A stretch of 38,745 nucleotides of DNA from Kiritimatiellia bacterium (GCA_017424105.1 JAFPBK010000083.1:1-38745), one strand, 5' to 3'. Shown: positions 4,008-38,745, counted from the first letter of the stretch. Notes: generated from the sequence alone by a model not told the origin. A program made the numbers and translations.

Positions 4008-4021
4008 ATATATGTTTCCAC

Positions 4022-18606: not shown

Positions 18607-18957
18607 CTAACCTTGCAACTCAAATGCTGTTGCATCACAGCCATCCATTGCTGCTGGTTTTTCCACATAGACGCGTACCCATCCCACTTTAGGCAGAGCT
18701 TTGATTTCTGTAAAGATATCATAAGCAAAGCTCTCAATTAGTTTATATTCTTTTGATGCAGCAAATTTATTTACTATTTCAAGAGCTAATTCATAATTAA
18801 AAGTGTCATTAAGATCATCACTTGTTAAAGCACGTTCTATACCTAATGGGCTTAGTTCAATATCTACTACAGCAGGGCGAGGAGCTATTCTCTCCTCAGG
18901 ATAGTGCCCTAGTATTAGGTTAACCTTTATCCTTTTTACAAAAATCTTTGCTTCCAT
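18607..18957 (-). CDS. folB: dihydroneopterin aldolase
   Basis: ILGHYPEER, SDDLNDTFNY, LIE, VEKPAA. Confidence 0.9.
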   Translation of the reverse strand: MEAKIFVKRIKVNLILGHYPEERIAPRPAVVDIELSPLGIERALTSDDLNDTFNYELALEIVNKFAASKEYKLIESFAYDIFTEIKALPKVGWVRVYVEKPAAMDGCDATAFELQG

Positions 18958-19042
18958 AAAATCTCACATATATAAATTCATTTTGATTTTTTATAAAATT
19001 ATACACTATGATGTAATCTTTTTCCATAAAAAACCATACCTT

Positions 19043-19500
19043 AGCCTAAATTCGTAGCCGAATTTAGATGAAGCAGCACTGCGGCATATGAAGCATTGCG
19101 AAGCACTATATGCGATGGAATTATTTAAAGTTTCAGCAAGGCGAGGACGCCATGCCGCCCAGTTATTCTGTAAGACGGGGACGTCTTACAGCCCAGTTAA
19201 CGTGTAGGACGGGGACGTCCTACACCCCAGTTAAGCACACACAAAAAAATATTTTACCTAATCTATTCGTTATTCACTATTCACTAATTCTGCGTACTTA
19301 CGCTCCCATACTCAATTATCTTGTGGGCCGCACACGCTAGCGATTGGTAGTTGGCGTTATCTTGGAGCGGCTAGGCGTCGCCCTAGCCTCCAACAACAAG
19401 CGCTGGCGTATCATCCGGAACCACCACGCAAGCCCCCACACAAGCTCAGCGCACCTCAGCGCCCTTTGCGCTCTCTGCGTCCCTTCCCTTCGCACGCTAG
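19043..19500 (+). repeat. dispersed modular multi-hairpin element, copy 1 (type-1 tail)
   Basis: Core 19127-19230 is near-identical to the copies at 25656, 34245 and 38469; leader and tail are shared with copy 4. Confidence 0.92.
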
Positions 19501-19557
19501 CCGTCTTACTTGAATTCTACTGCAATTCAAGGACTAACAGTGCTTGTGCTGCTTAAT

Positions 19558-20439
19558 TTAAATTCTAGGGATTGATGGTGCAGCACCTGCTTTGCTGACA
19601 CAAATTGCAGAAGCACGTGTAGCTAACTGCATTGCTGATTGCACTGTGGCTCCAGATGCAATCTGTGCAAGAAAATATCCTATGAATGTATCGCCTGCTG
19701 CTGTTGTATCAACAGCCACAACCTTCTGTGCAGGCTCAAAATGCTGAGTACCATCAACACCAGCATATACACTGCCACGAGAGCCAAGTGTTAATAAAAT
19801 ATTTGTTGTCGGATAGCTCTGCTTTAGCTTTGCTAATAGTGGCTCATAATCATCGCTGTCACTGGCACCAACTAATTCTGCTGCCTCAACCTCATTAACA
19901 ACCAAAACATCTATTGATTGCAAATCTAATTTACAAATTGATTTATCCATCGGTGCAGGATTAAAAACGACCTTTAACCCCTTCTCTGCTGCAAGAGCAA
20001 TTATCTCAGCGATTGCTGATGTTTCATTCTGCAAAAGCAAATAATCCCCTGGTTCAAAGCCCAAATCTGATATAGCGGCAGCCACATCGCTGGCAGTAAC
20101 ACAACGATTTGCACCACCCTCAATCAAGATGCAATTCTGCCCTTCTGTATTAACCTGAATAATTGCATGGCCTGTAGGTCCATCTACTTGCGTAAGATGA
20201 GAAATTCCAGCACTTTCATTTGCCAAAAAATCAACAAGCCATGTTCCATCTGCACCTACATGTCCGACATGATGTACCGTTGCACCTGCACGTGCTAATG
20301 CAATGCTCTGATTAAGTCCCTTGCCACCAGGATAACGAGCATAGCCAGTAGAAGATAATGTTTCACCTGGCTGCACAAAGTGTGGTACTTGATAAACATA
20401 ATCAATATTCAGAGAACCAACGTTAAGTATCTTTTTCAT
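19558..20439 (-). CDS. rbsK: ribokinase (PfkB family)
   Basis: GSLNID, PGGKGLNQ, NPAP, VNEVE, VDTTAAGDTF. Confidence 0.9.
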   Translation of the reverse strand: MKKILNVGSLNIDYVYQVPHFVQPGETLSSTGYARYPGGKGLNQSIALARAGATVHHVGHVGADGTWLVDFLANESAGISHLTQVDGPTGHAIIQVNTEGQNCILIEGGANRCVTASDVAAAISDLGFEPGDYLLLQNETSAIAEIIALAAEKGLKVVFNPAPMDKSICKLDLQSIDVLVVNEVEAAELVGASDSDDYEPLLAKLKQSYPTTNILLTLGSRGSVYAGVDGTQHFEPAQKVVAVDTTAAGDTFIGYFLAQIASGATVQSAMQLATRASAICVSKAGAAPSIPRI

Positions 20440-20465
20440 TATCGGACTTTTCTCTTTGCTAATGG

Positions 20466-21650
20466 TTATTCAACGTGGCAGAGTACACCCTTCAAATATA
20501 GTCCCTCAGGGAAGGACATTGCCACAGGGTGATCAGGTGCCTGCATAAATCTGCGCTCCATACGCACTACACGCTTTGAATCAAGTGCTGCATCAGCCAC
20601 AACCTTTTGGAAAAGCTCTGGCATTACACTGCCTGAGCAAGAATATGTGGCAAGGTAGCCTCCTGGACGGAGAAGCTTAAATGCAAGTAAATTGATATCT
20701 TTATAAGCTCTGCATGCACGCTCAACATGCCCCTTGGAGTCTGCAAACTTTGGTGGATCGAGAATTATTATATCGAAGGTGCGTCTTGAATCGCGGAATT
20801 TTCTCAATGCAGCAAACACATCCGCACACTGCACTTCAAGCTTTGCTTCATCAAAGCCATTAAGAGCAACATTTCTCTTAACATTTTCAATTGCTTCCTC
20901 AGAGGAATCAATTGAGCAAATTGATTTTGCACCACCCTTTAATGCATAGAGAGTAAAGCCTCCATTATAACAGAAAGTATCTAATACATCGGCACCATTA
21001 CAAATTGCACCGACCTCCTGCCAATTATCTACCTGATCAAGATAGCAGCCAGTTTTTTGTCCTTTTTCAACATCAACTAACCAGCGTACTCCATCAACAG
21101 AAACCTCAACTAATGGAGAATTGAAATTTTGTGTCAGAGGACCTGTGCGCTCCTCTAAGCCTTCTAATGCACGGGTAGGAGTATCTGAGCGCTCATATAA
21201 GCTACATTCAGGGAAAAGCTCTTGAAATGCTTCTGTTAATTCCTTGCGCATTGCTTCAAAGCCAGCGGAAAGAATCTGAATAGAAATAACATTAACAAAA
21301 CGATCTGCAATCAAACCTGGCAAACCATCTGACTCACCATGAAGGATACGCACAGCATTATGTGTGGCAGAGTCCCAACGATTAGCACGCATTGCCCATG
21401 CAGCAGAAATACGATTTTTCAAAAATGTTTTATCTATTGTCTCTGCCTTATCAAAGGTAAGAATGCGCACTACCAATTGAGCATTAGGAGAATAGAAGCC
21501 ACGACCTAGAAATTCACCTGTACTTGTAACTACATCTACCACAGTACCGGCAGCTACTCCTTGTGGAAAGCGAGCTACAGCTCCGGAAAACACCCATGGA
21601 TGCTTACGAAGCAATGATTTTTCTTTACCCTTTTTAAGTACAATATTCAT
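20466..21650 (-). CDS. rlmI: 23S rRNA m5C1962 methyltransferase (PUA + SAM)
   Basis: HPWVFSG, GESDGLPG, GQKTG.YLDQ, LDPPKF, DHP..FPEG.YLK. Confidence 0.9.
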   Translation of the reverse strand: MNIVLKKGKEKSLLRKHPWVFSGAVARFPQGVAAGTVVDVVTSTGEFLGRGFYSPNAQLVVRILTFDKAETIDKTFLKNRISAAWAMRANRWDSATHNAVRILHGESDGLPGLIADRFVNVISIQILSAGFEAMRKELTEAFQELFPECSLYERSDTPTRALEGLEERTGPLTQNFNSPLVEVSVDGVRWLVDVEKGQKTGCYLDQVDNWQEVGAICNGADVLDTFCYNGGFTLYALKGGAKSICSIDSSEEAIENVKRNVALNGFDEAKLEVQCADVFAALRKFRDSRRTFDIIILDPPKFADSKGHVERACRAYKDINLLAFKLLRPGGYLATYSCSGSVMPELFQKVVADAALDSKRVVRMERRFMQAPDHPVAMSFPEGLYLKGVLCHVE

Positions 21651-21697
21651 AGTAATAAATCAAATTTTAAAGATTAAACGCAGCAGACTCATTTACA

Positions 21698-22879
21698 TTA
21701 AAAGCCAAATCCCTTTGTCATTTGCAACAATGGCAACAATACAGCAATTGCAATCAGGAATACAAAGCCGCCAATTGCGACGAGCATAATTGGTTCAAGT
21801 AACGCAAGTCTTACAGACATATATTTTTCCCACATACGGCGAGCCTTGCTTGCTGCAACCTCCAGCATCTGTGGAAGACAGCCACCTGTCTCACCGACAC
21901 GAGCCCAGCCAGTGAGCTCTGTACGTAGTACAGGCACAGCATCAATTGCATCGGACACAGCAACACCATTACGAACACGCTCTGTCTGCTCTAAAACCAG
22001 CTTTTTGAGCCAACGATTACCTGTACCTTCACCAGCAATAGGCAAAGCATTAACGATTGGCATACCTGCCTCAGAAAGCACAGAAAGAATTGAAGCAAAG
22101 CGCATACTTACAAGACCTGCCATTGCTGCTCCTCCTAAGTGAAGCAACACAAATCTATCAAATCGCTCTGCAAATTCTAAATTATTCTTAGCATAAGCTT
22201 TAGCAGAGAACCATGCCACAAGTGCACCAACAAATAGTGATGCAGAACCAATCACAAGAACCTTTGCCAGCACAATCACTACTTTGCTTAGCATTGGAAG
22301 TTCTGCTCCGGAATTTGAAAGCATATTAAGGGTGTGAGGAACAACAAAACCAAGCATCACTACACCGATAATAAAACCAAGTGCTAAAACAAAGCTTGGA
22401 TAAATCAAAGCTGAGCGAAGTTTATCTCGCACTGCCTCCATCGCCTCAATAAATTCAGCTGCCTTTGAACAAAGCTCAGGAAGCTTTCCAGCCTTTTCTG
22501 CAGCTGATAGTGCAGCCAATTCAAAACTGGAGACACTGCCACAATATTCACCTATGGCAGCAGATAAATCAACGCCCTCGCGAACTCGTTGTAGCACACC
22601 TGTAAGAAGCTTTGCTGCAGATGCACCTTCTGATTTAATTAAAAGTTCAAGAGCAGCATCTAGCTGTATACCTGCAGAAAGAAGAGCGCTCAGCTCGCGA
22701 TAAATTGCAGCACGTGCAGCTGGAGAAAGCTGACCTGTAAGCTTTGCAGTGCTCACTTGCTCAGCAACAATACCCTTCTCCATCAATAAACGAAGTGCAT
22801 GCTTTTCTGAGCTTGCATCAATTGACCCAGAGCAAGCTTCGCCTGTAGCAGTATACCCCTTATATTCGTACATTGGCAT
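21698..22879 (-). CDS. type II secretion F / PilC family inner-membrane platform protein
   Basis: MPMYEYKG start, two T2SSF repeats (LLSAGI..AL; ALIYP; VGETGG.L; LLEP). Confidence 0.9.
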   Translation of the reverse strand: MPMYEYKGYTATGEACSGSIDASSEKHALRLLMEKGIVAEQVSTAKLTGQLSPAARAAIYRELSALLSAGIQLDAALELLIKSEGASAAKLLTGVLQRVREGVDLSAAIGEYCGSVSSFELAALSAAEKAGKLPELCSKAAEFIEAMEAVRDKLRSALIYPSFVLALGFIIGVVMLGFVVPHTLNMLSNSGAELPMLSKVVIVLAKVLVIGSASLFVGALVAWFSAKAYAKNNLEFAERFDRFVLLHLGGAAMAGLVSMRFASILSVLSEAGMPIVNALPIAGEGTGNRWLKKLVLEQTERVRNGVAVSDAIDAVPVLRTELTGWARVGETGGCLPQMLEVAASKARRMWEKYMSVRLALLEPIMLVAIGGFVFLIAIAVLLPLLQMTKGFGF

Positions 22880-22912
22880 CGCTTCCCCCAGAATAAGATT
22901 TTACAAAAATGC

Positions 22913-23470
22913 TTAGCAAATAAGCATTCCTTCTGCTACTGCACTAGCGACCTTATGGCCCTGCAATAGTTCAAGAATTAAAATAGCAAACATAAGTGCT
23001 GTAGCTGGACCTTGAGATGTAATGATATTTCCATCTACAAGTACTTTATCTACAGAAGAATACTTTGCCTCTGGCATTCTTTCCTCTAAGCCAGGATAGC
23101 AAGTAACACGCTTACCATTCAATACACCAGCCTCATATAAAGCAACTGGTGAAGCACAAATTGCTGCAACAAATTTATTTTTATTTGAAGCAAAGCGAGA
23201 AATTGTATTTTGTACGCGCATATCCTCGCAAAATGCTTCCATACCACCCATTCCACCTGGAAGAATAATTATGTCAGCATCCTCAACTGCTTCCTCGTTC
23301 CACATTTCGTCAGCGACAAGACCAACGCCACGAGAGCCCTCTACGTCAAGTCCTGCATCTTCATCAATAGATAGAGCAATTACCTCTACTCCGCCACGGC
23401 GAAGCACATCAATAATTGTTACTGTTTCTAGCTCTTCTACACCGCTTACTACTGGAACAATTGCTTTCAT
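22913..23470 (-). CDS. DJ-1/YajL (ThiJ/PfpI) family protein
   Basis: GVEELE, DVLRRG, LPGG, AAICASP, TCYP, TSQGP. Confidence 0.92.
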   Translation of the reverse strand: MKAIVPVVSGVEELETVTIIDVLRRGGVEVIALSIDEDAGLDVEGSRGVGLVADEMWNEEAVEDADIIILPGGMGGMEAFCEDMRVQNTISRFASNKNKFVAAICASPVALYEAGVLNGKRVTCYPGLEERMPEAKYSSVDKVLVDGNIITSQGPATALMFAILILELLQGHKVASAVAEGMLIC

Positions 23471-23565
23471 AAATTTTCCTTTGCAAAAATGATTTTATTA
23501 TAGCACACCTACTCGCCATGCAAGTTTTATACTAATTTAACCAAGGTATGCTATTACAAAATATA

Positions 23566-24231
23566 TTATTTAGAAATTCCTAATAAATCAAGAAGCTTTG
23601 AATCTAGATTATATAATTTTGTTCCACGAAGGATGGAACGTGGGCTTCTGGAATATGTAAACACAAATTTTGTTTCAGGAGGAACGCGTCCATTAAGGTT
23701 GATATCAAAATAAACCTTTTCTCCCTTTTCAAATTCACGTGATAAAAGCTCGCGCTTAATCGCTTCATCAGTGAATGAAGTAGGTTTGATATCGCATTCA
23801 ACTTCAAAATTTGTTGTCAAATTAACATTATCTACACCATAGCGAGTATTAACACGATTAAGTGATTTAGCAATGTTTGTTTGAAGCTTAAAGTTGAAAG
23901 ATTTTCCTGGCAAATTATTTTTGTACTCTTCTTCTGTGCGTACTGTAAATACGCCAGTAATACGATTAGCAATAGCATTTGCCTCAACCTCTGTAAGTTC
24001 TGAGCAACGCATTCTTACGGACATACCTTCAGAACGGAAACGAACCTCATTAAACAAACGTTGATTTGACCCCTCGTGAACACCAGCACTGGTTGTAATA
24101 ATTGCATTAGGACGAGTCATTGCATTATATTGGCTGTCATAGAAATTTATCATCCACTCGATAATAAATGGAATGAGAGCCAATACAACAATATAAATTA
24201 ATATTTTTAATATTAGTTTAATAATTCTCAC
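23566..24231 (-). CDS. hypothetical protein with N-terminal membrane anchor
   Basis: Hydrophobic aa 3-30, then a soluble domain; start overlaps the upstream kinase stop. Confidence 0.75.
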   Translation of the reverse strand: MRIIKLILKILIYIVVLALIPFIIEWMINFYDSQYNAMTRPNAIITTSAGVHEGSNQRLFNEVRFRSEGMSVRMRCSELTEVEANAIANRITGVFTVRTEEEYKNNLPGKSFNFKLQTNIAKSLNRVNTRYGVDNVNLTTNFEVECDIKPTSFTDEAIKRELLSREFEKGEKVYFDINLNGRVPPETKFVFTYSRSPRSILRGTKLYNLDSKLLDLLGISK

Positions 24232-25334
24232 CGCATCACCCTACCAGAAGCATTGCCATTCATAAGAGAAGTTACCTCGCTAACAGAAACGCGGTTATAA
24301 TCACCATAAATTGAATGCTTTAAGCAGCTTGCTGCAACAGCAAATGCGAGGGCTTTTTGTGGCTCAGAATACTCTGTTGTATTCAGTGCATAAATCAAGC
24401 CAGCAGAGAAAGAGTCGCCACCACCAATTCTATCAAGAATATTTTCAATTCTGTATGAGCAATAGCTGCCATCTGGAGCAAGCGGTGCTAGGTATGATTT
24501 TGCTTCAGCAACATCATATAGCATTGCGCCCCAATTATTGTGATCAGCAGAATAGCTTTCACGTAGAGTGATAGCAATCTTAGATGCTTTAGGGAAGCGA
24601 GCTGCCAAAGCCTGAGCAACCTCTGTATAAGCTGCAATATTTAGCTGACCTGCCTCAACAGAAGTACCGCTTGCTGAAATACCAAACACATCAGAAGCAT
24701 CCTCTTCATTACCTACAATCACATCTACATAAGGAACAATCTGTCCCATGCATTCAGCTGCAAGAGCCTTTGGAGCAGTACCCTCACGCCACTTCCAAAG
24801 CTTTTTGCGGAAGTTCAAATCGCATGAGATTTTAATACCCTTCTCAGCTGCAAGCTTTGTTATAGCCAAAGTTGATTTGAAAGCAGCCTCTGAAAGAGAT
24901 GGTGTGATACCTGTAATATGTAACCAAGTTACGCCAGCAAGCATTGCTTCAAAGTCATAATCCTCTGGCTCTGCTAATGAAATTGATGAATAAGCGCGAT
25001 CATAAACAACTGATGAACCACGCTGATTTGCACCTGTCTCAGCAAAATAAATACCTAGGCGGCCTTTAGATGTTTTAAGGATTTTTGTGGTATCAACGCC
25101 TAGTCCACGCATTTCGCATAGCATTGCATCAACAATAGCATTTGAAGGGAGTGCTGTGAGGTATCTAGTTTGCAAACCAAACTGAGCAATACTTGCACAA
25201 ACATTTGCTTCACCGCCACCGAAAATAGCTTGTAGAGTTCCTGGCATAGCCTGAGCAAAGCGTAGGCTACCAGACGGAGATAAACGAAGCATTACTTCAC
25301 CAAAACCAGCAATACAAATTGGAGCTTTATCCAT
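24228..25334 (-). CDS. kdgK: 2-dehydro-3-deoxygluconokinase-like PfkB sugar kinase
   Basis: FGEVMLRLSP, GGGEANV, YDR, HITGITP, DLNFR.KLW, DRIGGGDSF. Confidence 0.85.
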   Translation of the reverse strand: MDKAPICIAGFGEVMLRLSPSGSLRFAQAMPGTLQAIFGGGEANVCASIAQFGLQTRYLTALPSNAIVDAMLCEMRGLGVDTTKILKTSKGRLGIYFAETGANQRGSSVVYDRAYSSISLAEPEDYDFEAMLAGVTWLHITGITPSLSEAAFKSTLAITKLAAEKGIKISCDLNFRKKLWKWREGTAPKALAAECMGQIVPYVDVIVGNEEDASDVFGISASGTSVEAGQLNIAAYTEVAQALAARFPKASKIAITLRESYSADHNNWGAMLYDVAEAKSYLAPLAPDGSYCSYRIENILDRIGGGDSFSAGLIYALNTTEYSEPQKALAFAVAASCLKHSIYGDYNRVSVSEVTSLMNGNASGRVMR

Positions 25335-25369
25335 ATGCGATACCTTTCACTGCACTACTACAAAAAAAA

Positions 25370-25461
25370 TGGCGGAGAGGGGGGGATTTGAACCCCCGGT
25401 ACAGAATTAACTGTACGACGAATTAGCAATCCGCTGCCTTCAGCCACTCAGCCACCTCTCC
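25370..25461 (-). tRNA. tRNA-Ser(GCT)
   Basis: Anticodon loop TTGCTAA, long variable arm, GGGGG-TTCAAAT-CCCCC T arm, CCA. Confidence 0.96.
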
Positions 25462-25499
25462 GCAAAGCATAATCTTTTATATGCATTTGATATTTGCGT

Positions 25500-25528
25500 A
25501 TAATACCTTATTATTTGCTCAGATTCAA
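25500..25528 (-). promoter_or_regulatory. sigma70-type promoter of tRNA-Ser(GCT)
   Basis: TTGAAT-17-TATTAT. Confidence 0.6.
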
Positions 25529-25604
25529 GCAAAAAAACACAAATTTCGCTTAATTTTCCTTAAAATGTTGCTTTCCATTTTAAATAAAGCTATTGAAGTT
25601 AGCG

Positions 25605-25984
25605 TGCCTAAGGCATATGAAGCATTGCAAAGCAATATATGTGGTGAGATTAAATAAAGTTTCAGCAAGGCGAGGACGCCATGCTGCCCAGTTATTCTGT
25701 AAGACGGAGACGTCTTACAGCCCAGTTAACGTGTAGGACGGGGACGTCCTACACCCCAGAACTATGCGCTACCTAATACAGGTTAATCCTGAAAAATCAT
25801 CTTGGTGCACAGCCAGGACGACGCCTGGCTGCTCCGAGATAATTGAATCACGAACACCACACATGCACAGCACCTAGCCATCACGCAAACCACCACACGC
25901 ACGCAACATCCGACAAAATCAAAACAAAATTATTGTCATTCCTGTCAAAAAATTCGCACTTTTAGCCATCACGCTTACGTACGC
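25605..25984 (+). repeat. dispersed modular element, copy 2 (type-2 tail)
   Basis: Core 25656-25759; tail shared with copy 3. Confidence 0.92.
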
Positions 25985-25997
25985 AAGACAGCGTGCA

Positions 25998-26939
25998 CTA
26001 GAATGATATTATGTTTTCGCGGTGCATACTATAAAAGCCCGGCGAATATACCTCTGGATCACCTACAACCACATGATCGATTACTGGAATTGACAATTGC
26101 AATCCAGCAGCAACAAGCTCTTTGGTTATCTCTATATCCTTGCGGGATGGACGTGCATCGCCAGAAGGATGATTGTGTGCCAAAATTACTAATGCTGCAG
26201 AATAACGTATTGCCTCACGAAATACCTCGCGAGGATGTACAAGTGACGAATCAAGAGTTCCAGAAGAAATCTCAATCGGCTGCTGTGTGCAGAGTCGGCA
26301 TCGCTTATCTAATGGAAAAACAAAAAAGCTCTCCGTTTGCGATAATGCTTTGATTCGTCTCACCTTTTGCGCGACAAGCTCCGGATCGTCAAATACACTG
26401 CGCTTATCTACATCACCTAGCATGACGCGTCGCGACAACTCAAGCATAGCAGCAAGCTCTATTGCCTTTACCTGCCCTATACCTCCATAGCTTTTGAGCT
26501 CCTCTACTCCGGCATTCATCAGCTGTGGGAGCGAACCAAATGAATCTAACAGTTGGTGAGCAAGCATAAGCACATTCTTTCCTTGCGAACCTGTGCGCAG
26601 CATTATTGCAAGGAGCTCTTCATCTAACAGAGCTTTTGCGCCAAATTTTGCCAAGCGCTCGCGTGGACGAAAATTCTCTGGCAGCGTTGATAGTGCTTGC
26701 GATTTTTCTTGATTGTCATCCACACAATTTTCTACACCATAAACTGCATTTTCTGTAGCATCCGCAACAGTCTTAACAGAACTGGACGCTGCCACAAATG
26801 GTGCTTCTCGTTTAACTAATTGGTGGGATTTTCTTGAATGGGGAGCAATATCACAAATGGATACTTTTTGCTCACAACCATCATACTTTAACCTCAGCTG
26901 GGCCATATTCATTCCAAACCTCCATGATCTTATCTGCAA
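25998..26939 (-). CDS. radC: RadC/JAB domain protein (start uncertain)
   Basis: RPRERL, ELLAIMLRTG, GIGQVKA, VHPREVF, HNHPSGD.RPS..D, DHVV. Confidence 0.92.
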   Translation of the reverse strand: MQIRSWRFGMNMAQLRLKYDGCEQKVSICDIAPHSRKSHQLVKREAPFVAASSSVKTVADATENAVYGVENCVDDNQEKSQALSTLPENFRPRERLAKFGAKALLDEELLAIMLRTGSQGKNVLMLAHQLLDSFGSLPQLMNAGVEELKSYGGIGQVKAIELAAMLELSRRVMLGDVDKRSVFDDPELVAQKVRRIKALSQTESFFVFPLDKRCRLCTQQPIEISSGTLDSSLVHPREVFREAIRYSAALVILAHNHPSGDARPSRKDIEITKELVAAGLQLSIPVIDHVVVGDPEVYSPGFYSMHRENIISF

Positions 26940-27843
26940 CTCTACTTACTTCTATAGCCGTATTGGGCGCTGACACCCATTTTACATTATTCTGATTACG
27001 GAACCACGTACGCTGACGCTTTGCCAGCTGACGAGTTCTTACAATTGTTCGCTCAATTGCTTCCTCTACTGAGCACTTTCCATCAAGAGCATCCTGTGCT
27101 TCTTGATAGCCAATGCCTGAGCCTGCAGTAGAAGAAAAATTCGGATATTGCTCGCGGAGGAGCTTTACTTCATCAAGCAAACCGCCTGTAAACATTTCGC
27201 GGGCACGCTTTTCAATGCGTAATTTTAAGAGCTCTGGCTCCGCCCAGAGTCCTGCAATTGCTGGTTGATTGTTTGCTGTCAGCTTTTCCTCAGAGGCAAG
27301 ATGCGCTGCATAGCTACGCACAGCATCCACTCCTTTTGCTTCAAGCATTTCAATCATACGAATCACGCGGCGAGGATTCTCTTTGTCTGCCATTGCTTCC
27401 AAAACCTCAGGCACAGCAGAAAGACGCTGCCACAAGACCTCAATTCCTCCAGCAGCATATTCTGCATTCAGTTTTGCCCGAAGTTCCTCATTCTCTGCAC
27501 CGGGTGCATCAATACCTTTAAGTAATGCGCTGATATATAAGCCTGTGCCACCAGCAACAATTACACTGCGCCCCTGTGCCTCTGCCTCAGCAAAGGCTGC
27601 TCGTGCTGCATCTAACCATTTTCCTGTGCTAAATGGAGCATCTGGAGCAACTATATCGGCACCACGAAAATCAATTCCAACAAGCTCTTCAGCTGTTGGT
27701 TTTGCTGTGCCTATATTCATTCCTTTATAGACAAGCATGGAATCAGCTGATATGAGTATGCTGCCTGTGCGGCGAGCTAGCTCATTAGCTGTAGCAGTTT
27801 TTCCTGTTGCGGTAGGACCGACTAATATCCATGCTTTTGCCAT
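26881..27843 (-). CDS. miaA: tRNA dimethylallyltransferase
   Basis: GPTATGKT, ADSMLVYKGMNIGTAKP, GGTGLY, NPRRVIR, AKRQRTWF. Confidence 0.96.
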   Translation of the reverse strand: MAKAWILVGPTATGKTATANELARRTGSILISADSMLVYKGMNIGTAKPTAEELVGIDFRGADIVAPDAPFSTGKWLDAARAAFAEAEAQGRSVIVAGGTGLYISALLKGIDAPGAENEELRAKLNAEYAAGGIEVLWQRLSAVPEVLEAMADKENPRRVIRMIEMLEAKGVDAVRSYAAHLASEEKLTANNQPAIAGLWAEPELLKLRIEKRAREMFTGGLLDEVKLLREQYPNFSSTAGSGIGYQEAQDALDGKCSVEEAIERTIVRTRQLAKRQRTWFRNQNNVKWVSAPNTAIEVSRVADKIMEVWNEYGPAEVKV

Positions 27844-27845
27844 AA

Positions 27846-28487: not shown

Positions 28488-28557
28488 TCTTTCAACTTTC
28501 TAAATCTATGTGTAAAAATCAACTCTCTAAAATAACTTGGTAGGAATATCAAAGCAA

Positions 28558-30837: not shown

Positions 30838-30864
30838 ATTTTTTGCTCCTAAGCTCACAAGATT

Positions 30865-33800
30865 TTACGAATTTGCCCCGCAGCACTTCTTATATTTTTT
30901 ACCACTTCCACATGGGCAAGGATCATTACGTCCAACTGAAACAGCAGCCTTGACAGGACCACGTGCAGCACCATTCTCTGCTGCTGCGCGAGCTGCTTGT
31001 GCTTTCTCAGCCATTGCAAGAGCCTTGTCAAAAGCATCTGAGCTTACGCTGCTTGCTGCTGGAGCAGAAGTAACACGGCTAGCCTGAGCTGCTCTTGCTG
31101 CCTGCTGATTTACACCAGAAGCTGCAGCTGTTGCTTGAGCTAATACAGAAGCCTGTTCCTCAGGATTATTTGTCTTAACACGGCGTGACATTGCCATACG
31201 TGTCATAAAGCCTTGCATTGCCTCTAGTGAGGTTGCAGAACGGAATGCTGCTGTGCAAACATTAAGCTTAATGCGCTCCATCAAATCGTAGAACATGATT
31301 GAAGCCTCACGCTTATACTCAACTAGAGGATCGCGCTGTGCATAAGAGCGAAGACGTACATCACCGCGCAAATCATCCATTGAACGCAAATATGTTTGCC
31401 ACTCTGTATCAACACTGCGAAGCATTACATAGCGCTCCAAATCCATTAGGCGATCTGGTGTTTCCATTGAGCACTTTAGCTGATATGCTTCCTCAACCAA
31501 ATTCATAATAAACTTAGCTGCTTCCTCTGCCTTACCCTTGAATTGAACAAGATCTGCTTCTGCCAGCGGAATTGGGAATACGCTGTTTGCCCACTCAACA
31601 AGCTCACCTAAACGAGAGTCCTTTTCTGAAATGATAAACTTCTCGCATTGAGTCATGATAATATCATTGAAAATATCAAGAATTAAATCATGAACATTTT
31701 CGCTTGATAGTGCATCTGAACGGAAGCCATAAATCACCTCGCGCTGACGATTCATAACATCATCATATTCAAGTGTACGCTTACGAATTGAGAAGTTACG
31801 CTGCTCAACCTTGCGCTGAGCTGTTTCAATTGAGCGATTCAACAGACCTGCTTGAATTGGCTCGCCTTCCTTATAGCCCATGCGAGCCATCATTCCTGCA
31901 ATGCGGTCAGAACCAAACAGACGCATTAGAGGATCCTCAAGAGAAACGTAGAAACGTGAAGAACCTGGATCACCCTGACGAGCACAGCGACCACGTAGCT
32001 GGCGGTCAATACGGCGAGACTCGTGTCTCTCAGAGCCAATCACACGCAAACCGCAAGGGCGCTCTTCAAGAAGCTCGCGTAATGTCTTTGGATAACCCTG
32101 TGGCTTATCATCAAGACTTGTTTGTGACTGTATCAACTCACGAGGTGTCCAAACGACGCCCTCTCCAAGCTTAATATCAGTACCACGACCAGCCATATTT
32201 GTTGCAATTGTTACTGCTCCTGGCTGACCTGCAAGTGCAACAATCTCTGCCTCGCGTGCATGGTTCTTTGCATTCAACACATTGTGTGGAATACCAGCCT
32301 GCTTGAATAAGCGAGAAAGAATTTCTGATGTTTCAACTGCAACAGTACCAAGAAGCACTGGCTGCCCATTTCTATGACACTCCTTTACCTCGTCAATAAT
32401 TGCATTGAATTTCTCACGCTGTGTGCGATACATCAAGTCATTGCTGTCAACACGACGAATTGGGCGATTTGTTGGAATTACAACCACATCAAGGCGATAA
32501 ATCTCATTAAATTCTGAAGCTTCTGTTTCTGCTGTACCTGTCATACCAGCAAGCTTCTTATACATACGGAAGTAGTTCTGAATTGTAATTGTTGCAAGAG
32601 TCTGAGTCTCGCGCTCAATCTTTACGCCTTCCTTAGCTTCAACTGCTTGGTGAAGACCATCTGACCAACGGCGGCCTGGAAGGATACGTCCTGTAAATTC
32701 ATCAACGATAAGAACCTTGTTGTCCATAACAACATAATCTGTATCCTTTTCGTACAAGCAATAAGCCTTTAGAAGCTGGTCAATTGTATGGATACGCTCG
32801 CTTCTCTCTGCAAAATCTGCTTGAGCTGCCTGACGCTTCATCTGGCGCTCTTCATTTGACAAGCCTTCTGCATCAATTGCTGACATAATTGCAACAATAT
32901 CAGGAAGCACGAACATTTCATGATCTGCAGGATTTAATTCTGTGCAACCATTATCTGTCAAAATTGCTTCACGAGTACGCTCATCAATTGTGAAGTATAG
33001 CTCCTCTCTGAATCTGCGGGAGTCTTCCTTATGCATCTCTGTAAGCATCATGTTCTCAACATCCTCATGAAGCTTACGGATAGATGGCTCTTCAAACATC
33101 TGTAGCAAGCGAGGGTGCTTTGGCATTGCATGATAAATCTGATACATATACTTCAAAGAAGCATCACGATTCTCTTCCTTGATTGCTGCTTCAACCTTTG
33201 TAAATAACTGATCTACCAGCTGTAGCTGCTTACGATACAAGCGCTCAACCTTTGGCTGCAATAAAGAGTACTGCTGATTTGTTTGAGGTGCAGGACCAGA
33301 AATAATAAGTGGTGTACGAGCCTCATCAATAAGAATTGAGTCCACCTCGTCGATAATAGCAAAGCTATATCCACGCTGTACTTGCTCCTGAGCAGAGGTT
33401 GCCATACCATTATCACGCAAATAGTCAAAACCGAACTCAGAGTTTGTTCCATAAGTAACATCACAAGCATATTGCTCGCGGCGCTGCATTGGATTCATTG
33501 TATTTTGAATACAACCAACTGTCAGACCAAGCCACTTAAATACCTGACCAACCCACTGAGAGTCACGTAATGCCAAATAATCGTTAACAGTAACAAGATG
33601 AACATTATTTCCTGTAAGTGCATTTAGGTACAAAGGAAGTGTTGCAACAAGTGTTTTACCTTCACCAGTCTGCATTTCTGCAATCTTACCTTGGTGTAGA
33701 ACAATACCACCCATTAGCTGAACGTCAAATGGCACCATTTCCCATCTTAGAGTATGACCGCAAACCTCGTATTCATTACCGCACATTCTGCGACAAGCAT

Positions 33801-34011
33801 TCTTTACGACAGCAAATGCCTCACACATAATGTCATCAAGAGTTTCACCATTCTTTAGACGCTCTTTAAATTCAGGTGTCTTTGCACGTAGTTCATCATC
33901 TGAAAGTGATTTATACTGCTCATCAAAGCGATTGATAGCCTCTACATATGGACGCAATTTCTTTACATCGCGAGCACGCTTTGTTCCAAAAATTTTAGCA
34001 AAAAGATTCAT
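30865..34011 (-). CDS. secA: preprotein translocase ATPase SecA
   Basis: MQTGEGKT, VTVNDYLA, DEVDSILIDEARTPLIISG, TNMAGRGTDI, RQGDPG, SEC-C GRNDPCPCGSGKKYKKCC. Confidence 0.99.
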   Translation of the reverse strand: MNLFAKIFGTKRARDVKKLRPYVEAINRFDEQYKSLSDDELRAKTPEFKERLKNGETLDDIMCEAFAVVKNACRRMCGNEYEVCGHTLRWEMVPFDVQLMGGIVLHQGKIAEMQTGEGKTLVATLPLYLNALTGNNVHLVTVNDYLALRDSQWVGQVFKWLGLTVGCIQNTMNPMQRREQYACDVTYGTNSEFGFDYLRDNGMATSAQEQVQRGYSFAIIDEVDSILIDEARTPLIISGPAPQTNQQYSLLQPKVERLYRKQLQLVDQLFTKVEAAIKEENRDASLKYMYQIYHAMPKHPRLLQMFEEPSIRKLHEDVENMMLTEMHKEDSRRFREELYFTIDERTREAILTDNGCTELNPADHEMFVLPDIVAIMSAIDAEGLSNEERQMKRQAAQADFAERSERIHTIDQLLKAYCLYEKDTDYVVMDNKVLIVDEFTGRILPGRRWSDGLHQAVEAKEGVKIERETQTLATITIQNYFRMYKKLAGMTGTAETEASEFNEIYRLDVVVIPTNRPIRRVDSNDLMYRTQREKFNAIIDEVKECHRNGQPVLLGTVAVETSEILSRLFKQAGIPHNVLNAKNHAREAEIVALAGQPGAVTIATNMAGRGTDIKLGEGVVWTPRELIQSQTSLDDKPQGYPKTLRELLEERPCGLRVIGSERHESRRIDRQLRGRCARQGDPGSSRFYVSLEDPLMRLFGSDRIAGMMARMGYKEGEPIQAGLLNRSIETAQRKVEQRNFSIRKRTLEYDDVMNRQREVIYGFRSDALSSENVHDLILDIFNDIIMTQCEKFIISEKDSRLGELVEWANSVFPIPLAEADLVQFKGKAEEAAKFIMNLVEEAYQLKCSMETPDRLMDLERYVMLRSVDTEWQTYLRSMDDLRGDVRLRSYAQRDPLVEYKREASIMFYDLMERIKLNVCTAAFRSATSLEAMQGFMTRMAMSRRVKTNNPEEQASVLAQATAAASGVNQQAARAAQASRVTSAPAASSVSSDAFDKALAMAEKAQAARAAAENGAARGPVKAAVSVGRNDPCPCGSGKKYKKCCGANS

Positions 34012-34088
34012 TTTTATTCCTTAAAATCAAATATATAAATTTGGCATAAAAAATGCCAAAAAACTTTCATCACGAATTAAACATATAA

Positions 34089-34117
34089 ATATTAACAAAT
34101 TGTTAAAATAAAAGCAA
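34089..34117 (-). promoter_or_regulatory. putative sigma70 promoter of secA
   Basis: TTGCTT-17-TAATAT. Confidence 0.45.
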
Positions 34118-34186
34118 TTATTTATATGTGAAAGAACCCCTAAAAAACACATAATTTCGGCTATTTTTTGATAGCTCATTGACAAA

Positions 34187-34548
34187 ATGAAGCAACGCGA
34201 ACGCTATGAAGCGATATAGCGCAATTTATGCGATGGAATTATTTAAAGTTTCAGCAAGGCGAGGACGCCATGCCGCCCAGTTATTCTGTAAGACGGGACG
34301 TCTTACAGCCCAGTTAACGTGTAGGACGGGGACGTCCTACACCCCAGAAAAACCGCGATAGCCAATACACGTTAATCCTGAGAAATCATCTTGGTGCACA
34401 GCCAGGGCGACGCCTGGCTGCTCCGAGATAATTGAATCATGCACACCACGCGCACACAGCACCTAGCCACCACACTCACGCAGCACCTAGAAATCCTGCC
34501 ATCCTGCGCAATCCCGTAATCCTGCGTCCCTTCCCTTCGCACTTTTAG
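34187..34548 (+). repeat. dispersed modular element, copy 3 (type-2 tail)
   Basis: Core 34245-34347; tail like copy 2; CTGCGTCCCTTCCCTTCGCAC shared with copy 1. Confidence 0.92.
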
Positions 34549-34626
34549 AAACCACTCTTTGTGCAAGACGAGACGGCAAAATACCCCAGAAAAACAGACC
34601 CAATGAGCGTTCTGCGATAAAATAAC

Positions 34627-35355
34627 TTAAAGTGCTTGTACTGCCTCTGTTGCAACAGAAACAGCATACAATGCAGCTGTTTCAACACGCAAAATATTAT
34701 TGCCTAAGGTCACTGGTATTGCTCCCACAGCAATTGCTTGCTCTAATTCTGATGAAGACAAATCTCCCTCAGGACCAATTATTATGCCAAGCTTCTTTAT
34801 TGGCTGTGAAAGCTCGCGTATTGCAGTTGTGCAAGTGCGACTCTTCTCTCGCAAATCAGTAAGCAAAGTAGGTTGCTCAGAAAATTTTGCAACAGCATTT
34901 TTCCAACTGCATGCTGCCTCAATTTTCATCAAATAAGGACTGCTGCATTGCGTTACAGCTGCCTCAGCAATGCGTACCCATCGCTCCACACTGCTATCCT
35001 TTGGTTTTATCTGTACAAATTCAGAAACAATAGGAACAAGCCTATGCACCCCTAACTCTTGTGCCTTCTCTACAAGCCAATCCATGCGAGCAGGCTTAGC
35101 TATACACTGAAACAGTGTCAACTCCACTGCAGGTGGTGGCACAGTGATTACTTCACCAGTAAAATTTATTGATGCACTACGTTTTGCAAGCTGCGAAATA
35201 ACAGCTTCACGCTTATGCCCTTCTCCATCTGTTAAATCAAGCTTATCTCCAAGCTTAGCACGAAGCACAGTCACCACATGGTGCATCTGTGCTTCTGGCA
35301 ATACTTGCTCGCCGTCTGCTAACAATATTTCAGATGGAAGAAGTAATGTATGCAT
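34627..35355 (-). CDS. rsmE: 16S rRNA m3U1498 methyltransferase
   Basis: HHVVTVLR, EKAQELGV, IGPEGD, LGNNILRVETA. Confidence 0.95.
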   Translation of the reverse strand: MHTLLLPSEILLADGEQVLPEAQMHHVVTVLRAKLGDKLDLTDGEGHKREAVISQLAKRSASINFTGEVITVPPPAVELTLFQCIAKPARMDWLVEKAQELGVHRLVPIVSEFVQIKPKDSSVERWVRIAEAAVTQCSSPYLMKIEAACSWKNAVAKFSEQPTLLTDLREKSRTCTTAIRELSQPIKKLGIIIGPEGDLSSSELEQAIAVGAIPVTLGNNILRVETAALYAVSVATEAVQAL

Positions 35356-35361
35356 AATAAA

Positions 35362-36540
35362 TTACTTACTTAGCTTTTCGCGTTCTGCAGCAAACTTTTC
35401 AGCATACTCTTCGAACTTGCGTGCTTCAGGATAAGAAGATTTATCAAAGGCATCACGGAATGCCTCAAGAGCTGCTTTTTGTTTTGAATTTAACTTATGA
35501 GGTGTTTCAACAACAACCTGTACGCGTAAATCACCAAAATGACGAGCATTCAGAATTGGGCATCCCTTATCGCGCAAGCGGAACATTGTTCCAGACTGTG
35601 TACCAGCTGGAATCTTCAGTTTTGCCATACCATCAAGAGCAGGAACTGTTACCTCGCCACCTAATGCTGCTACATCTGGTGTAACAGGTACTGTGCAAAT
35701 CAAATCATCACCATCACGCTCGAACAATGGATGACTCATCACATCAATCACGACATGCAAATCACCGCTTGGTCCGCCACGTAAGCCGCCCTCGCCTTTA
35801 CCTGCCATACGTAGACGTATGCCTGTATCTACACCACGAGGAATCTTAAGGCTTATTGTAGATTTTCCTTTTACGCGACCTGCACCACGGCAAGTACGGC
35901 AAGGTGTGCGAACCACACTGCCTGTTCCCTTACATACAGGGCAAGGAGATTGGACCTTAAAGAATGCGGCACCACTGACAACATAGCCGGAGCCACCACA
36001 TTGCTTACATGTTTCTCTGCTTGTACCAGCAGCAGCACCTGTTCCCTTACAATCAGGACAATCATGCTCATGAGGTATTGAAAGCTCTTTGGTTGTGCCA
36101 AATAGTGCTTCCTCTAGTGTAATTCTTAAATCATAACGTAAATCTGCGCCCTTTTGAGGAGCATTTGGATTTGCTGAACGCTTTGAACGGCCTCCACCAA
36201 AGAGAGTATCAAAAATGCTTCCGCCGCCTTCTCCACCAAATAGACCTTCAAAAAGATCTCCAAAATCACCTGCATGAGAAAAATCACGACCAAAATCAAA
36301 GCCACCAGGACCAAACTTTGTTCCCTCATGACCAAAACGGTCATAATTTGCGCGCTTATTTTCGTCACTTAAAATCTCATAAGCTTCAGAAACTTCTTTA
36401 AATTTCTCTTCAGCGGCTTTATCTCCAGGATTTCTATCCGGATGATATTTCATAGCGAGCTTACGATATGCCTTCTTAATTTCATCAGCAGTGGCAGTTT
36501 TAGAAACACCTAAAAGCTCATAATAATCTTGCTTAGCCAT
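35362..36540 (-). CDS. dnaJ: chaperone DnaJ
   Basis: J-domain HPD, G/F region, four CxxCxGxG motifs. Confidence 0.98.
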
Positions 36541-36572
36541 AACTTGTTTTCCTAAACTCAGTATAAATTAAA

Positions 36573-37319
36573 TTATTCTACAGGTACTGAAACAATAACC
36601 TGAGCTGCACGAAGCACCTTTCCATTAAGAGTATAGCCCTTACGAACCTCAAATAGAACATGCTCTGGAGGAACGCTATCTGTAGGCATCTTTGAAAGTG
36701 CTTCATGATATTCTACATCAAAAGGCTTACCAAGAGACTCAACTGGCTTTAATCCAAATTTATCAAGTCCGCGTAGCAGCTCATTTTGAATAAGCTTAAA
36801 GCCTTCAATATAAGGATTTGGCTCTGCTGGCTTTGCTTCTTCTCCTTCTGCAGGAGCTGGAGCAGCAACGGTCTTCTCAAGAGAAGCAAGAGCGCTATCA
36901 ATATGATCTAGAGCTGGTAGCATTGCTGAAAGAAGTTCTGCATTTGCACTTTTAATCATATCTGCTTTATCGCGAGCCATACGTTTACGATAATTATCAA
37001 AATCAGCCTGAAGGCGCATTAAGCGTTCACGATAAATATCTGCCTCTGACTGTGCAGGAGCTTCTTCTGCTGGCTCCACCTCTGGTTCTTCTGCAGCAGC
37101 AGCAGCTTCCTCTGTTGATTCAGTTGCAGCCTCTTCTGCAGGAGCTTCCTCTGCTGTTGTCTCTTCTACAGGTGTCTCTTCTGTAGGAGCAGCTGGAGTC
37201 TCCTCCTCAACTGCAGGCTCTGCAGCTACAGTATTTTCTATTGTTTGCTCTTCAACAACTACATTTTCAGTTGTTGTTGTGTCATCTGCAGATACATTTT
37301 TCAAATCATCGCTATTCAT
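36573..37319 (-). CDS. grpE: nucleotide exchange factor GrpE
   Basis: RLQADFDNYRKR, FDVEYHEA, GYTLNGKVLRAAQV; long acidic N-terminus. Confidence 0.95.
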   Translation of the reverse strand: MNSDDLKNVSADDTTTTENVVVEEQTIENTVAAEPAVEEETPAAPTEETPVEETTAEEAPAEEAATESTEEAAAAAEEPEVEPAEEAPAQSEADIYRERLMRLQADFDNYRKRMARDKADMIKSANAELLSAMLPALDHIDSALASLEKTVAAPAPAEGEEAKPAEPNPYIEGFKLIQNELLRGLDKFGLKPVESLGKPFDVEYHEALSKMPTDSVPPEHVLFEVRKGYTLNGKVLRAAQVIVSVPVE

Positions 37320-37486
37320 AATAAACAAGTTCCTTCTAAATCAAATGGGTGTATAAAAACAAATTTATCAAAATACAAAACACCCAAAATCAGTATTAAA
37401 AAACATTTAAATTAAAAAAATATAGTTAAAAATTTTATCATTTTTTTGCTCTTTTGTAAACCAGAAATCAAAATCCACAAGAGAGA

Positions 37487-37526
37487 AAAATTCGCTGGCA
37501 AAACTCTAAAAAGCCAGCGAAATTTT
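37487..37526 (-). terminator. intrinsic terminator after the DUF1232 gene
   Basis: TTCGCTGGC...GCCAGCGAA stem with a T-tract on the minus strand. Confidence 0.7.
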
Positions 37527-37545
37527 AAATTAAAAACAGATAGAG

Positions 37546-37959
37546 CTATTTCTTAAAAATATCCTTTTCCATAATCACCTCTTCAGGCTCAACATCAATA
37601 ACTATACCAAGTTCTTTCTTTGTCTTCTCTTGTTCCAACTTATCCATCTTTGAGAGAACATACTTTAAAGCAAATGATGCTACTCCAAGGTCATCCAACC
37701 ATCCGATCAAAGGTATATAATCAGGAACAAAATCTAAAGGAGCAATGATATATAGCAAAGCTGCTCCGACTAGAATTTTTTCCTTCGCGCTAATTTTCGG
37801 AGAAACAAAGAAATTATACAGTTGCTTTGCTTTTTCTATTATACCTAGATTTTTAACTTTTTTTGACCAATCCACAAACATAGTTTTAATTTTCTCGTGA
37901 TTTTTTGGATCAGTAGCCTGCTTATACCATTTTGATTGAAAAAAATCTTTACCCTTCAT
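37546..37959 (-). CDS. YkvA/DUF1232 family membrane protein
   Basis: ALLYIIAPLDFVPDYIPLIGWLDDL signature; GGAGGAG RBS. Confidence 0.9.
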   Translation of the reverse strand: MKGKDFFQSKWYKQATDPKNHEKIKTMFVDWSKKVKNLGIIEKAKQLYNFFVSPKISAKEKILVGAALLYIIAPLDFVPDYIPLIGWLDDLGVASFALKYVLSKMDKLEQEKTKKELGIVIDVEPEEVIMEKDIFKK

Positions 37960-38019
37960 GAGTTAACTCCTCCGATGTATTTATTTAAGTAACTAATGTA
38001 AATTCAGTTAATTTACATG

Positions 38020-38036
38020 AGCAAAAAGTATGCCAA
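38020..38036 (-). promoter_or_regulatory. sigma54 (-24/-12) promoter
   Basis: TTGGCATACTTTTTGCT fits YTGGCACGRNNNTTGCW with exact GG-N10-GC spacing. Confidence 0.75.
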
Positions 38037-38087
38037 CAACTTTTTACATCAAAAACTCACACTTTTACTAATAAACCCGCTACTTTT

Positions 38088-38128
38088 TGTCACACTTCGC
38101 CCAATGATTGATGTCACATAATGCGACA
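38088..38128. promoter_or_regulatory. tandem putative enhancer-binding protein sites (UAS)
   Basis: TGTCACATAATGCGACA (38112-38128) and TGTCACACTTCGCCCA (38088-38103), ~80-120 bp upstream of the predicted start. Confidence 0.5.
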
Positions 38129-38184
38129 AACAACAAGGGTGCGTTTGCATCTTTTACGATGTAGCGCACCACTGTTGTTGTTTT
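38128..38184. other. long imperfect hairpin
   Basis: AACAACA..GGTGCG..TGCATC/GATGTA..CGCACC..TGTTGTT. Confidence 0.5.
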
Positions 38185-38345
38185 ATGCAAATGCTTCCGT
38201 CATAGCGCTTAATAAATTTGTCCCCAAGGTCCCCTAAGCGCTAAACTGACTGTACAATCGTCAAATCGTCTTTATGAAATAAGAGTTTTGCGCAATGCGT
38301 GCGTGCAAAGCACGCTAGGCCCGTTTTGAGTACAAGGCGGGATAA

Positions 38346-38745
38346 AGCCTAAATTCGTGTCCGAATTTAGATGAAGCAGCACTGCGTGCTATGAAGCGGT
38401 GCAAGCACCATGAAGCATGCCTTCGGCATATGAAGCATTGCGAAACAATATATGCGGTGGAATTATTTAAAGTTTCAGCAAGGCGAGGACGCCATGCCGC
38501 CCAGTTATTCTGTAAGACGGGGACGTCTTACAACCCAGTTACCGTGTAGGACGGGGACGTCCTACACCCCAGTTAAGCACACACTTTAAATATTTTAACC
38601 TTATCTATTCACTAATTCTGCGTACGCTCCCATACTCAATGATCTTGTGGGCCGTACACGCTAGCGATTGGCAGTTGGCGTTATCTCGGAGCGGCTAGGC
38701 GTCGCCCTAGCCTCCAACAACAAGCGCTGGCGTATCACCCAGAAC
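38346..38745 (+). repeat. dispersed modular element, copy 4 (type-1 tail; truncated by the window end)
   Basis: Fullest ATGAAGC array (38371-38449), core 38469-38572, tail like copy 1. Confidence 0.92.

Follow-up and report, generated by a model that had tools for sequence, protein, structure and literature searches.

Short, structured repeats that lie between genes form several described families in bacteria. PATEs are palindrome-associated elements derived from insertion sequences (IS) of the IS200/IS605 group. In the REP/REPIN-RAYT systems of Escherichia coli and Pseudomonas, going by the passages of PMC5581495 and PMC3479197 used here, short GC-rich extragenic palindromes are present at high copy number, a short motif is conserved at the foot of the hairpin, and a single-copy HUH/Y1 gene holds repeat units in inverted orientation. 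The units have neither terminal inverted repeats nor a target duplication, and their distribution is vertical and lineage-restricted. The REP motif is a GTAG-type tetranucleotide conserved 5' of the hairpin foot, as given in the relevant passages of PMC3479197. BIMEs, according to excerpts of PMC2817692 and PMC3479197, are built from a small repertoire of motifs, palindromic and otherwise, joined in set combinations, and are also extragenic. The BOX elements of Streptococcus pneumoniae and S. suis are composite, with fixed end modules around variable tandem inner modules according to the sections of PMC3049150 that cover them. Changes in boxB number have been proposed to come from events of the recombination or slippage type. 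Here we analyse a stretch of 38,745 nucleotides, referred to as the window, which is the entire contig C50 (1-38745) of a metagenome-assembled genome from the Kiritimatiellia. The window carries four intergenic copies of a multi-hairpin element, and these are members of a high-copy, genus-restricted, non-coding mosaic repeat family of the REP/BIME/BOX kind. The family is most like REP/BIME together with BOX repeats and lies outside the strict definitions of REPIN, BIME and MITE. It represents a new variant of these repeats, probably RAYT-mobilised, in which catalysis is something we infer from the sequence.

The host assembly comprises 1.78 Mb in 141 contigs, has a GC content of 40% and is 78.6% complete, and the public sequencing runs containing the region come from animal gut and manure. 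We compared the genome with itself, taking as a repeat region any merged stretch with at least five other copies in the genome, and obtained 224 merged regions that together make up 3.7% of the assembly, the longest being 928 nucleotides. By genome-wide blastn the core of the element gave 132 high-scoring segment pairs (HSPs) on 63 contigs and the remaining modules 62-66 HSPs each. Many of the contigs terminate inside repeats, and in the window the contig end falls within the fourth copy. Family modules were present in 4/4 other species of the genus and in 0/26 genomes from other genera of the family and order; at the level of the class they were found in 2 of 301 genomes, both members of the genus. 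A full-text literature search turned up no report of such repeats in Kiritimatiellia among the papers that it listed, which does not establish that none exists.

The original prediction, made from the sequence of the window, described four copies with a near-identical core, two alternative tails, a block shared between copies 1 and 3, and two relics, all of which were located as claimed by direct reading, genome-wide blastn and self-comparison. The repeat regions span 19042-19505, 25601-25979, 34187-34577 and 38219-38745, the contig end truncating the last of them. The core is present in all four copies, but it extends over ~145 nucleotides and not 104. The core of copy 1 (19087-19231) is 96.6% identical over 145 nucleotides to that of copy 4 (38429-38573), 93.1% over 144 nucleotides to that of copy 2 (25616-25759) and 97.7% over 128 nucleotides to that of copy 3 (34221-34347). 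The modules around the core pair the copies differently, as had been proposed. Copies 1 and 4 share tail A (19299-19421 and 38623-38745, 95%) and a leader (19043-19099 and 38346-38402, 88%), copies 2 and 3 share tail B (25766-25884 and 34355-34473, 89%), and the block CTGCGTCCCTTCCCTTCGCAC, read directly at 19476-19496 and 34522-34542, joins copy 1 to copy 3. All four lie on the plus strand. Copy 1 (19043-19505; HSP starts cluster at 19041-19049 and ends at 19490-19509) is a complete mosaic consisting of L, two M units, the connector X, three H units, an AT-rich module a, tail A and block c. Copy 2 (25601-25979) begins with a truncated M and continues with X, three H and tail B, made up of modules b, B and d. 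Copy 3 (34187-34577) has two M, X, three H, tail B and a module e with the block c motif. Copy 4 (38219-38745) starts with a pre-leader module P, followed by L, four M, X, three H, a, and a tail A that ends with the contig.

We painted every locus with 12 seed modules taken from the window. Within a locus the order is constant, canonically L, M, X, H, a, and then either A-c or b-B-d/e; other module strings seen were A-c-H-a-B-d and B-e-d-A-c. The modules of a locus are nearly always on the same strand, mixed strand having been flagged in 7 of the 224 painted regions. Between L and the tails the tandem numbers range from 2 to 4 units for M and from 1 to 4 for H, which usually has three, and HSP starts and ends cluster at the borders between modules. 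The non-autonomous, modular, REP/BIME-like family that had been anticipated is borne out. Single-linkage clustering of the unpainted segments was tried as a module catalogue and discarded, having merged them into one 258-member network. We also rejected a candidate insertion of an L-M unit into the loop of an H hairpin (an element ending GAGGAC), where the 3' arm that such an interruption should leave behind is absent after the element. Sister genomes contain arrays of 1-2 kb built of family modules, at L040 (G003:C64) ~2960-4770 and L042 (G002:C8) ~2680-3960. A GACG-rich heptad repeat module (TTAGACG-like) is found in those arrays and in the pre-leader of copy 4 (38219-38345).

Most modules consist of a perfect or imperfect DNA palindrome adjoining a short fixed motif. 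The loop of L, a perfect 9+4+9 palindrome, varies among copies; L gave 168 hits with both strands counted, or ~84 loci. From the family hits, the L of copy 1 lies at 19046-19067 on the plus strand, with a perfect 9-bp stem (CTAAATTCG / CGAATTTAG) and a variable 4-nucleotide loop. M is ATGAAGC followed by a mini-hairpin with a 5-bp stem, occurs in up to four tandem copies and numbers 371 units genome-wide; copy 1 has two (19068-19109, plus strand), the canonical number being four, as in copy 4. The M stems are position-specific and their loops hypervariable. Over the 371 units we counted 1728 Watson-Crick stem pairs against 127 non-Watson-Crick pairs, and stem 1 occurs as AGCGC/GCGCT (43), AGCAC/GTGCT (14), AGCAT/ATGCT (8) and AGTGC/GCACT (5). 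The mismatches are symmetric (41 G-T and 48 A-C), and the folding constraint is therefore not bound to one transcribed strand. H is a 34-nucleotide unit made of an 8-bp stem, a loop and CCCAG, the loop being GGGA or AGGA in 213 of the 270 hairpin plus CCCAG hits, and its four stem types differ by compensatory paired substitutions. In copy 1 three H units stand in tandem at 19136-19230 on the plus strand, with 8-bp stems at 19136-19155, 19170-19189 and 19204-19223, the loop RGGA, and CCCAG after each. Stems are held by compensatory changes while loops vary freely. Three fixed motifs are each preceded by a hairpin in 25-30% of their occurrences, compared with 3-5% for reversed-motif controls. 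The first nine bases of the third H unit (19204-19212, GTAGGACGG) are also the start of the E. coli REP oligonucleotide crystallised with TnpA-REP, as described in part of PMC3479197; this match is probably a coincidence, and in the H unit GTAG is paired within the stem.

The tails are larger structures, both A and B being long scaffold hairpins with a repeat unit in the apex. Tail A is a long, imperfect scaffold hairpin with an exchangeable apex (19291-19421 in copy 1, plus strand), and its 56 copies carry one of three apex cassettes, in 18, 10 and 28 copies. The first two cassettes (18 and 10 copies) are found in sister species too, and among five aligned sequences the cassette linked to the RAYT-like gene described below is present only in the two from this species. 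Block c (19422-19505, plus strand; 65 HSPs) follows tail A, contains the terminal TTCGCAC...AGCC block and forms the right end of copy 1. Tails A and B have one unit in common, stem-GGRCGACGCC-stem-CYCCRAGATAA, which we refer to as the REP-like unit. It is in forward orientation in tail B, at 25816-25839 in copy 2 and 34405-34428 in copy 3 (both plus strand), and inverted relative to the element in tail A. In copy 1 the inverted unit is an exact pattern match at the apex (19360-19383, minus strand), and in copy 4 it lies at 38684-38707 (minus strand).

The REP-like unit leads to a candidate enzyme. The genome has a sole match to PF01797 (Y1_Tnp), an open reading frame (ORF) of 377 amino acids at C36:3055-4185 (L001 880-2013, minus strand), which scores 37 bits against a cut-off of 23. 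Its HUH (NHVHL) and YVENNP motifs are intact and are invariant across 9 relatives. A profile of the Y1 family gave weak matches (E 0.01-0.06) to IS200/IS605 TnpA structures and to E. coli TnpA-REP, and a phmmer search of the protein against the PDB found nothing. In the ESM Atlas the protein falls in Y1_Tnp clusters of 320-400 amino acids from Lentisphaerota, Kiritimatiellota and Verrucomicrobiota. A C-terminal domain of ~100 amino acids is conserved (ISTFTSPQER...NKQRAxWCNEYV) and has no Pfam match, and the linker is of low complexity, encoded by tandem GC-rich hairpin repeats and different in every species. A stand-alone ORF of 77 amino acids at C136:2466-2762 resembles only this RAYT-like C-terminal domain (49% identity) and has no Y1 domain upstream.

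At the level of sequence the tail unit is linked to this Y1 gene. The genome has 71 matches to the pattern GGRCGACGCC-N6-CYCCRAGA and 0 to a reversed control. Of these matches, 69 are in tails; the other 2 sit at the Y1 gene as an inverted pair, with one unit in the linker inside the ORF and its partner 42-65 nucleotides beyond the stop. The genomes of the sister species G001 and G004 have just 2 exact matches each, which form the corresponding pair at the Y1 orthologue, and G015, from a different genus, has a single exact match, within its Y1 orthologue. The remaining 26 relatives have no exact match, and allowing 2 mismatches adds only matches at chance level; by our arithmetic the chance expectation of the pattern is ~6e-4 per genome. 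In other species, the corresponding linker of Y1 paralogues contains another type of hairpin with GCTCCGAT after it, and hairpins of this paralogue type form a second small repeat family in the present genome, including the window at 348-476. There, three tandem 43-nucleotide units with GCCCGCTCCGATG are found, the family having the form of a hairpin plus GCTCCGATG. In this second family the number of copies of a 45-nucleotide tandem unit differs between this genome and the nearest species (G003) at one orthologous locus.

For a comparison of sites we used 1.38 Mb of G003. One site, C28:371-1000 (~630 nucleotides), is filled here and empty in G003, and it is the sole clean pair of the filled and empty kind that had been proposed as a check. 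There is no target duplication at this site. The left end of the element, (AGC)CTAAATTCG, has no inverted counterpart at any right end. Both results agree with what had been noted for the window, and the lack of terminal inverted repeats and of a duplication at C28 sets the family apart from MITEs. The hairpins and the lack of duplication would fit a non-autonomous element of the IS200/IS605 type, which inserts 3' of a fixed tetra- or pentanucleotide; at C28, the single informative site, the left flank and right end are similar (TAGCCCTCC / TAGCCATCT), which leaves any such target ambiguous. Three more orthologous loci have their flanks and part of their modules in common between the two genomes, while other modules have been swapped, gained or lost, in one case a whole H array. 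The orthologous sites of copies 1 and 3 have no element in 4/4 sister genomes, the flanks being on different contigs or 14 kb apart, which leaves no clean comparison. Contigs of 3 public DNA runs, compared over 18400-20400, gave no empty site either, in that no joint skips the element. H units number ~213 here and ~10 in G003, a difference of roughly 20-fold, and G003 has 62 M units and 20 L hairpins compared with 371 and ~84. The expansion is specific to this species. With both flanks found, 2 of 25 element loci were collinear with G003, against 147 of 180 control gaps, and G003 family modules lay beside a matched flank in 17/77 cases compared with 8/406 controls. The synteny breaks at the repeats may reflect rearrangement, a preference of the elements for operon borders, or wrong short-read joins.

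We see roughly an even chance that the family is mobilised by a RAYT-like enzyme in combination with recombination between copies. In such a mechanism the modules would be single-strand hairpin substrates of the single-copy, 377-amino-acid HUH/Y1 RAYT-like enzyme, which would cut and rejoin them without target duplication, beside or inside earlier copies. Recombination among the many copies would then shuffle the modules, and the two processes together would give both the mix-and-match architecture and the burst in this species. Three points in this mechanism we infer: the Y1 protein as the enzyme, single-stranded DNA as its substrate, and use of the same enzyme by L, M and H. A number of observations weigh against the proposal, and the original lead to a RAYT or Y1 enzyme stands in part: the single PF01797 gene with its inverted pair of tail units was found, while the 16-mer flank test failed and L, M and H motifs sought at the Y1 locus were absent. 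That flanking 16-mer frequency test is the criterion for a RAYT in the passages of PMC5581495 cited here. The commonest 16-mers at the Y1 gene occur 2 times per flank and 3 times inside it, against 81 for the top 16-mer of the genome, which lies in an H unit. Because the test failed, the link to the Y1 gene depends on a 10-nucleotide core and a 6-8-nucleotide tail motif at fixed spacing, with differing stems. The pattern was derived jointly from the tails and the gene, which makes its count in this genome partly circular and leaves the sister-genome matches as the independent part. The protein scores 49.9 bits against the NCBIfam model REP_Tyr_transpos, below the cut-off of 80. The distribution of the gene does not follow that of the repeats either: G003 has L, M and H modules without a close Y1 orthologue (best match 44% identical), G001 and G004 have the Y1 gene and its hairpin pair with the unit unexpanded, and the gene family is present in 22/31 related genomes, most of them without these repeats. 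Tail units are mostly solitary, with 7 adjacent pairs within 800 nucleotides among 89 units, of which 1, at the Y1 gene, is convergent; REPIN-like pairing of tail units is ruled out by these numbers. The borders of the C28 site carry a 9-nucleotide imperfect direct repeat (7 of 9) that would fit deletion or recombination too, and no excision, circles or catalysis were observed.

The mosaic could also have arisen and spread largely through host recombination, gene conversion and replication slippage among dispersed copies, much as has been proposed for the boxB numbers of BOX elements, with no dedicated transposase and with the hairpins at the Y1 gene as a further landing site. Junctions do re-use short strings, GRGGAC joining AATAGC-L after three different upstream modules and CCCCAG having at least four alternative continuations, and the terminal block stays in place at orthologous loci while the inner modules differ. 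The imperfect repeat bounding the C28 site, the loss of collinearity at element loci and the variable 45-nucleotide units all suit such an origin. It would leave unexplained how elements arrive at new unique sites, why H is in such excess over G003, why the tail-unit pattern is confined to the Y1 gene in G001 and G004, and why a matching hairpin type sits in the linker of the paralogues, and we regard recombination on its own as rather unlikely. The elements could instead be miniature derivatives of an IS that is missing from the incomplete assembly and encodes a transposase other than the Y1 protein. The assembly does lack part of the genome and assemblies break at repeats, and our search covered five transposase and reverse transcriptase families: the 79%-complete genome yielded no TnpB, rve, IS110 or reverse transcriptase, and none of the five families matched in the window, where the Pfam scan covered 10 ORFs. 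Against such a derivative, the ends lack terminal inverted repeats and, at the one clean site, a target duplication. Six repeat-rich stretches of four sister genomes contained no version with an ORF, self-comparison showed no repeated family of transposase size, and plasmid and phage collections searched with the repeats gave zero matches, all of which make a missing IS distinctly improbable.

A role as RNA, whether as a structured untranslated region, an mRNA stabiliser, an attenuator or a multi-copy small RNA, would account for the compensatory stems and free loops through selection on the RNA fold. Shuffled sequence folds less well than copy 1 on either strand (z -2.6 and -2.4), and the loci are enriched between convergent genes. 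Using crude greedy ORFs of at least 100 amino acids as the genes for orientation and synteny counts, 82 loci had a gene on both sides, arranged relative to the element as 31 ++, 17 --, 24 convergent and 10 divergent; convergent gaps thus make up 24/82 element loci compared with 76/1203 (6%) of the background. By the same crude calls just 4 of 140 scored loci lie within a long ORF. The uniform orientation noted originally, with copies 1-3 between the 3' end of one minus-strand gene and the promoter region of the next, holds in the window, where all four copies point the same way and copies 1-3 are flanked by minus-strand ORFs, but not beyond it. Across the genome, the element points the same way as most of its flanking genes at 67 of 140 loci, and even between tandem genes the split is 31 against 17; orientation relative to genes is random, and the uniformity of the window is local. 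The plus strand of the element is on the G-rich side at 56/140 loci, or 44/99 with strong skew, a measure of local GC skew that is confounded by coding-strand skew (G exceeds C in 1176/1344 ORFs), the contigs being too short for placing the origin. A multi-copy structured RNA, which had been offered as the alternative, gained little from these tests. Random orientation and stem mismatches without strand bias argue against it, the Rfam scan of the whole window gave 4 tRNAs and nothing else, and at E up to 10 copy 1 gave one chance-level match, outside the element, with no family reaching its gathering threshold. In the copy 1 region terminator-like sites are absent; promoter-like sites number 3 where 1.5 would be expected, and each of them is located in the AT-rich left flank. 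From the metatranscriptome run X20, 10 contigs could be placed, mostly partial and from other copies, among them short contigs with L-M and c modules; the run consists of contigs only and may contain DNA, and it is not usable for or against expression. The 3.7% genome load and the burst in one species suit selfish DNA better, and an RNA role seems to us unlikely.

It is least probable, and in our view very unlikely, that part of the picture is an assembly artefact in which the copies are real and the contigs have been misjoined across a repeat of ~100 copies, making neighbourhoods and synteny breaks unreliable. Contigs of 3 DNA runs include none that spans copy 1, many contigs end within repeats, the orientations of the two flanks of a locus are nearly independent, and 23 of 25 element loci are non-collinear with G003. 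Set against this, copy 1 is entered from its unique flanks, left and right alike, by contigs of 3/3 DNA runs belonging to three studies, and the summed word depth over the element is roughly 20-600x that of the flanks. Because these independent contigs enter the element from both flanks and none spans it, the repeats themselves are not artefacts, though the joins across them are unverified. At collinear loci both flanks match G003 at 95-98% identity, and every one of the 32 long ORFs in the window is on the minus strand, across all of the junctions. The plus-strand GC skew of the window is negative throughout.

Among described systems the family compares as follows. It shares with REP/REPIN-RAYT all of the features outlined at the start, going by the passages cited there: GC-rich extragenic palindromes at high copy number (~213 H, 371 M, ~84 L and 71 tail units), a motif at the hairpin foot, a single-copy HUH/Y1 gene with inverted repeat units, ends without inverted repeats or duplication, and a vertical, lineage-restricted distribution. 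Unlike in REP, the motif here stands 3' of the hairpin (CYCCGAGA, CCCAG), and GTAG occurs only in one H type, paired in the stem. The units are not the inverted doublets of REPINs, H and M being direct tandems, and one unit of the pair at the gene falls within the ORF, in the variable linker that precedes the extra C-terminal domain. With the BIMEs of enterobacteria, as far as the passages cited describe them, the family has in common an extragenic mosaic of palindromic and non-palindromic motifs. The REPs of BIMEs are regularly spaced and alternate, whereas H (34 nucleotides) and M (~20 nucleotides) form direct tandems in one orientation, and the loci here are longer (up to 928 nucleotides), with long scaffold hairpins and exchangeable apexes. 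BOX offers the same composite plan, several module permutations, size variation at the same locus between genomes and stem-loop potential, and the passages of PMC3049150 cited here name no mobilising enzyme. The family differs from BOX in its larger number of module types, its GC-rich hairpins against a genome of 40% GC, its alternative ends (tail A or tail B) and a candidate enzyme gene that shares one unit; the likeness is one of architecture, with no relation in sequence expected. PATEs resemble it in their near-end hairpins, in having neither terminal inverted repeats nor a target duplication, and in a Y1 HUH candidate enzyme, and differ in that a multi-copy IS with tnpA or tnpB is missing here.

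Copy 2 lies between tRNA-Ser(gct) and a radC-like gene, and copy 3 between secA and an rsmE-like gene. The relic at 9480-9560 (plus strand) retains a decayed L hairpin and two M-like (ATGAAGC-type) units, and that at 15642-15686 (minus strand) is a terminal d-type module with 11 other copies in the genome.

The family accounts for the assembly of the genomes of this gut genus into roughly 100 pieces, and neither contig joins nor comparisons of gene order can safely be relied on across these elements. A broader and more tentative scenario, which we think improbable as it stands, is that RAYT-like HUH enzymes of Kiritimatiellota, Lentisphaerota and Verrucomicrobiota keep their own recognition hairpins in a coding linker and paste hairpin units into the apexes or ends of other scaffolds, a form of cassette exchange, in place of REPIN doublets. 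This would give combinatorial mosaics, and in one gut species it may have run away to ~4% of the genome, where it would mark most of the gene-order breaks relative to the nearest sequenced relative. Even for E. coli, the passages of PMC3479197 cited here describe the copying of REP-type repeats as an unsettled matter. The present system could make this copying testable, as a compact and rich case in a different phylum with several hairpin classes side by side. Its scaffold apex cassettes differ within one genome and its copy number differs ~20-fold between sister species, which together would offer a natural before-and-after of a repeat burst, and the matched hairpin pair of the enzyme gene, the sole copy of the unit in two sister genomes, would provide clear biochemical substrates.

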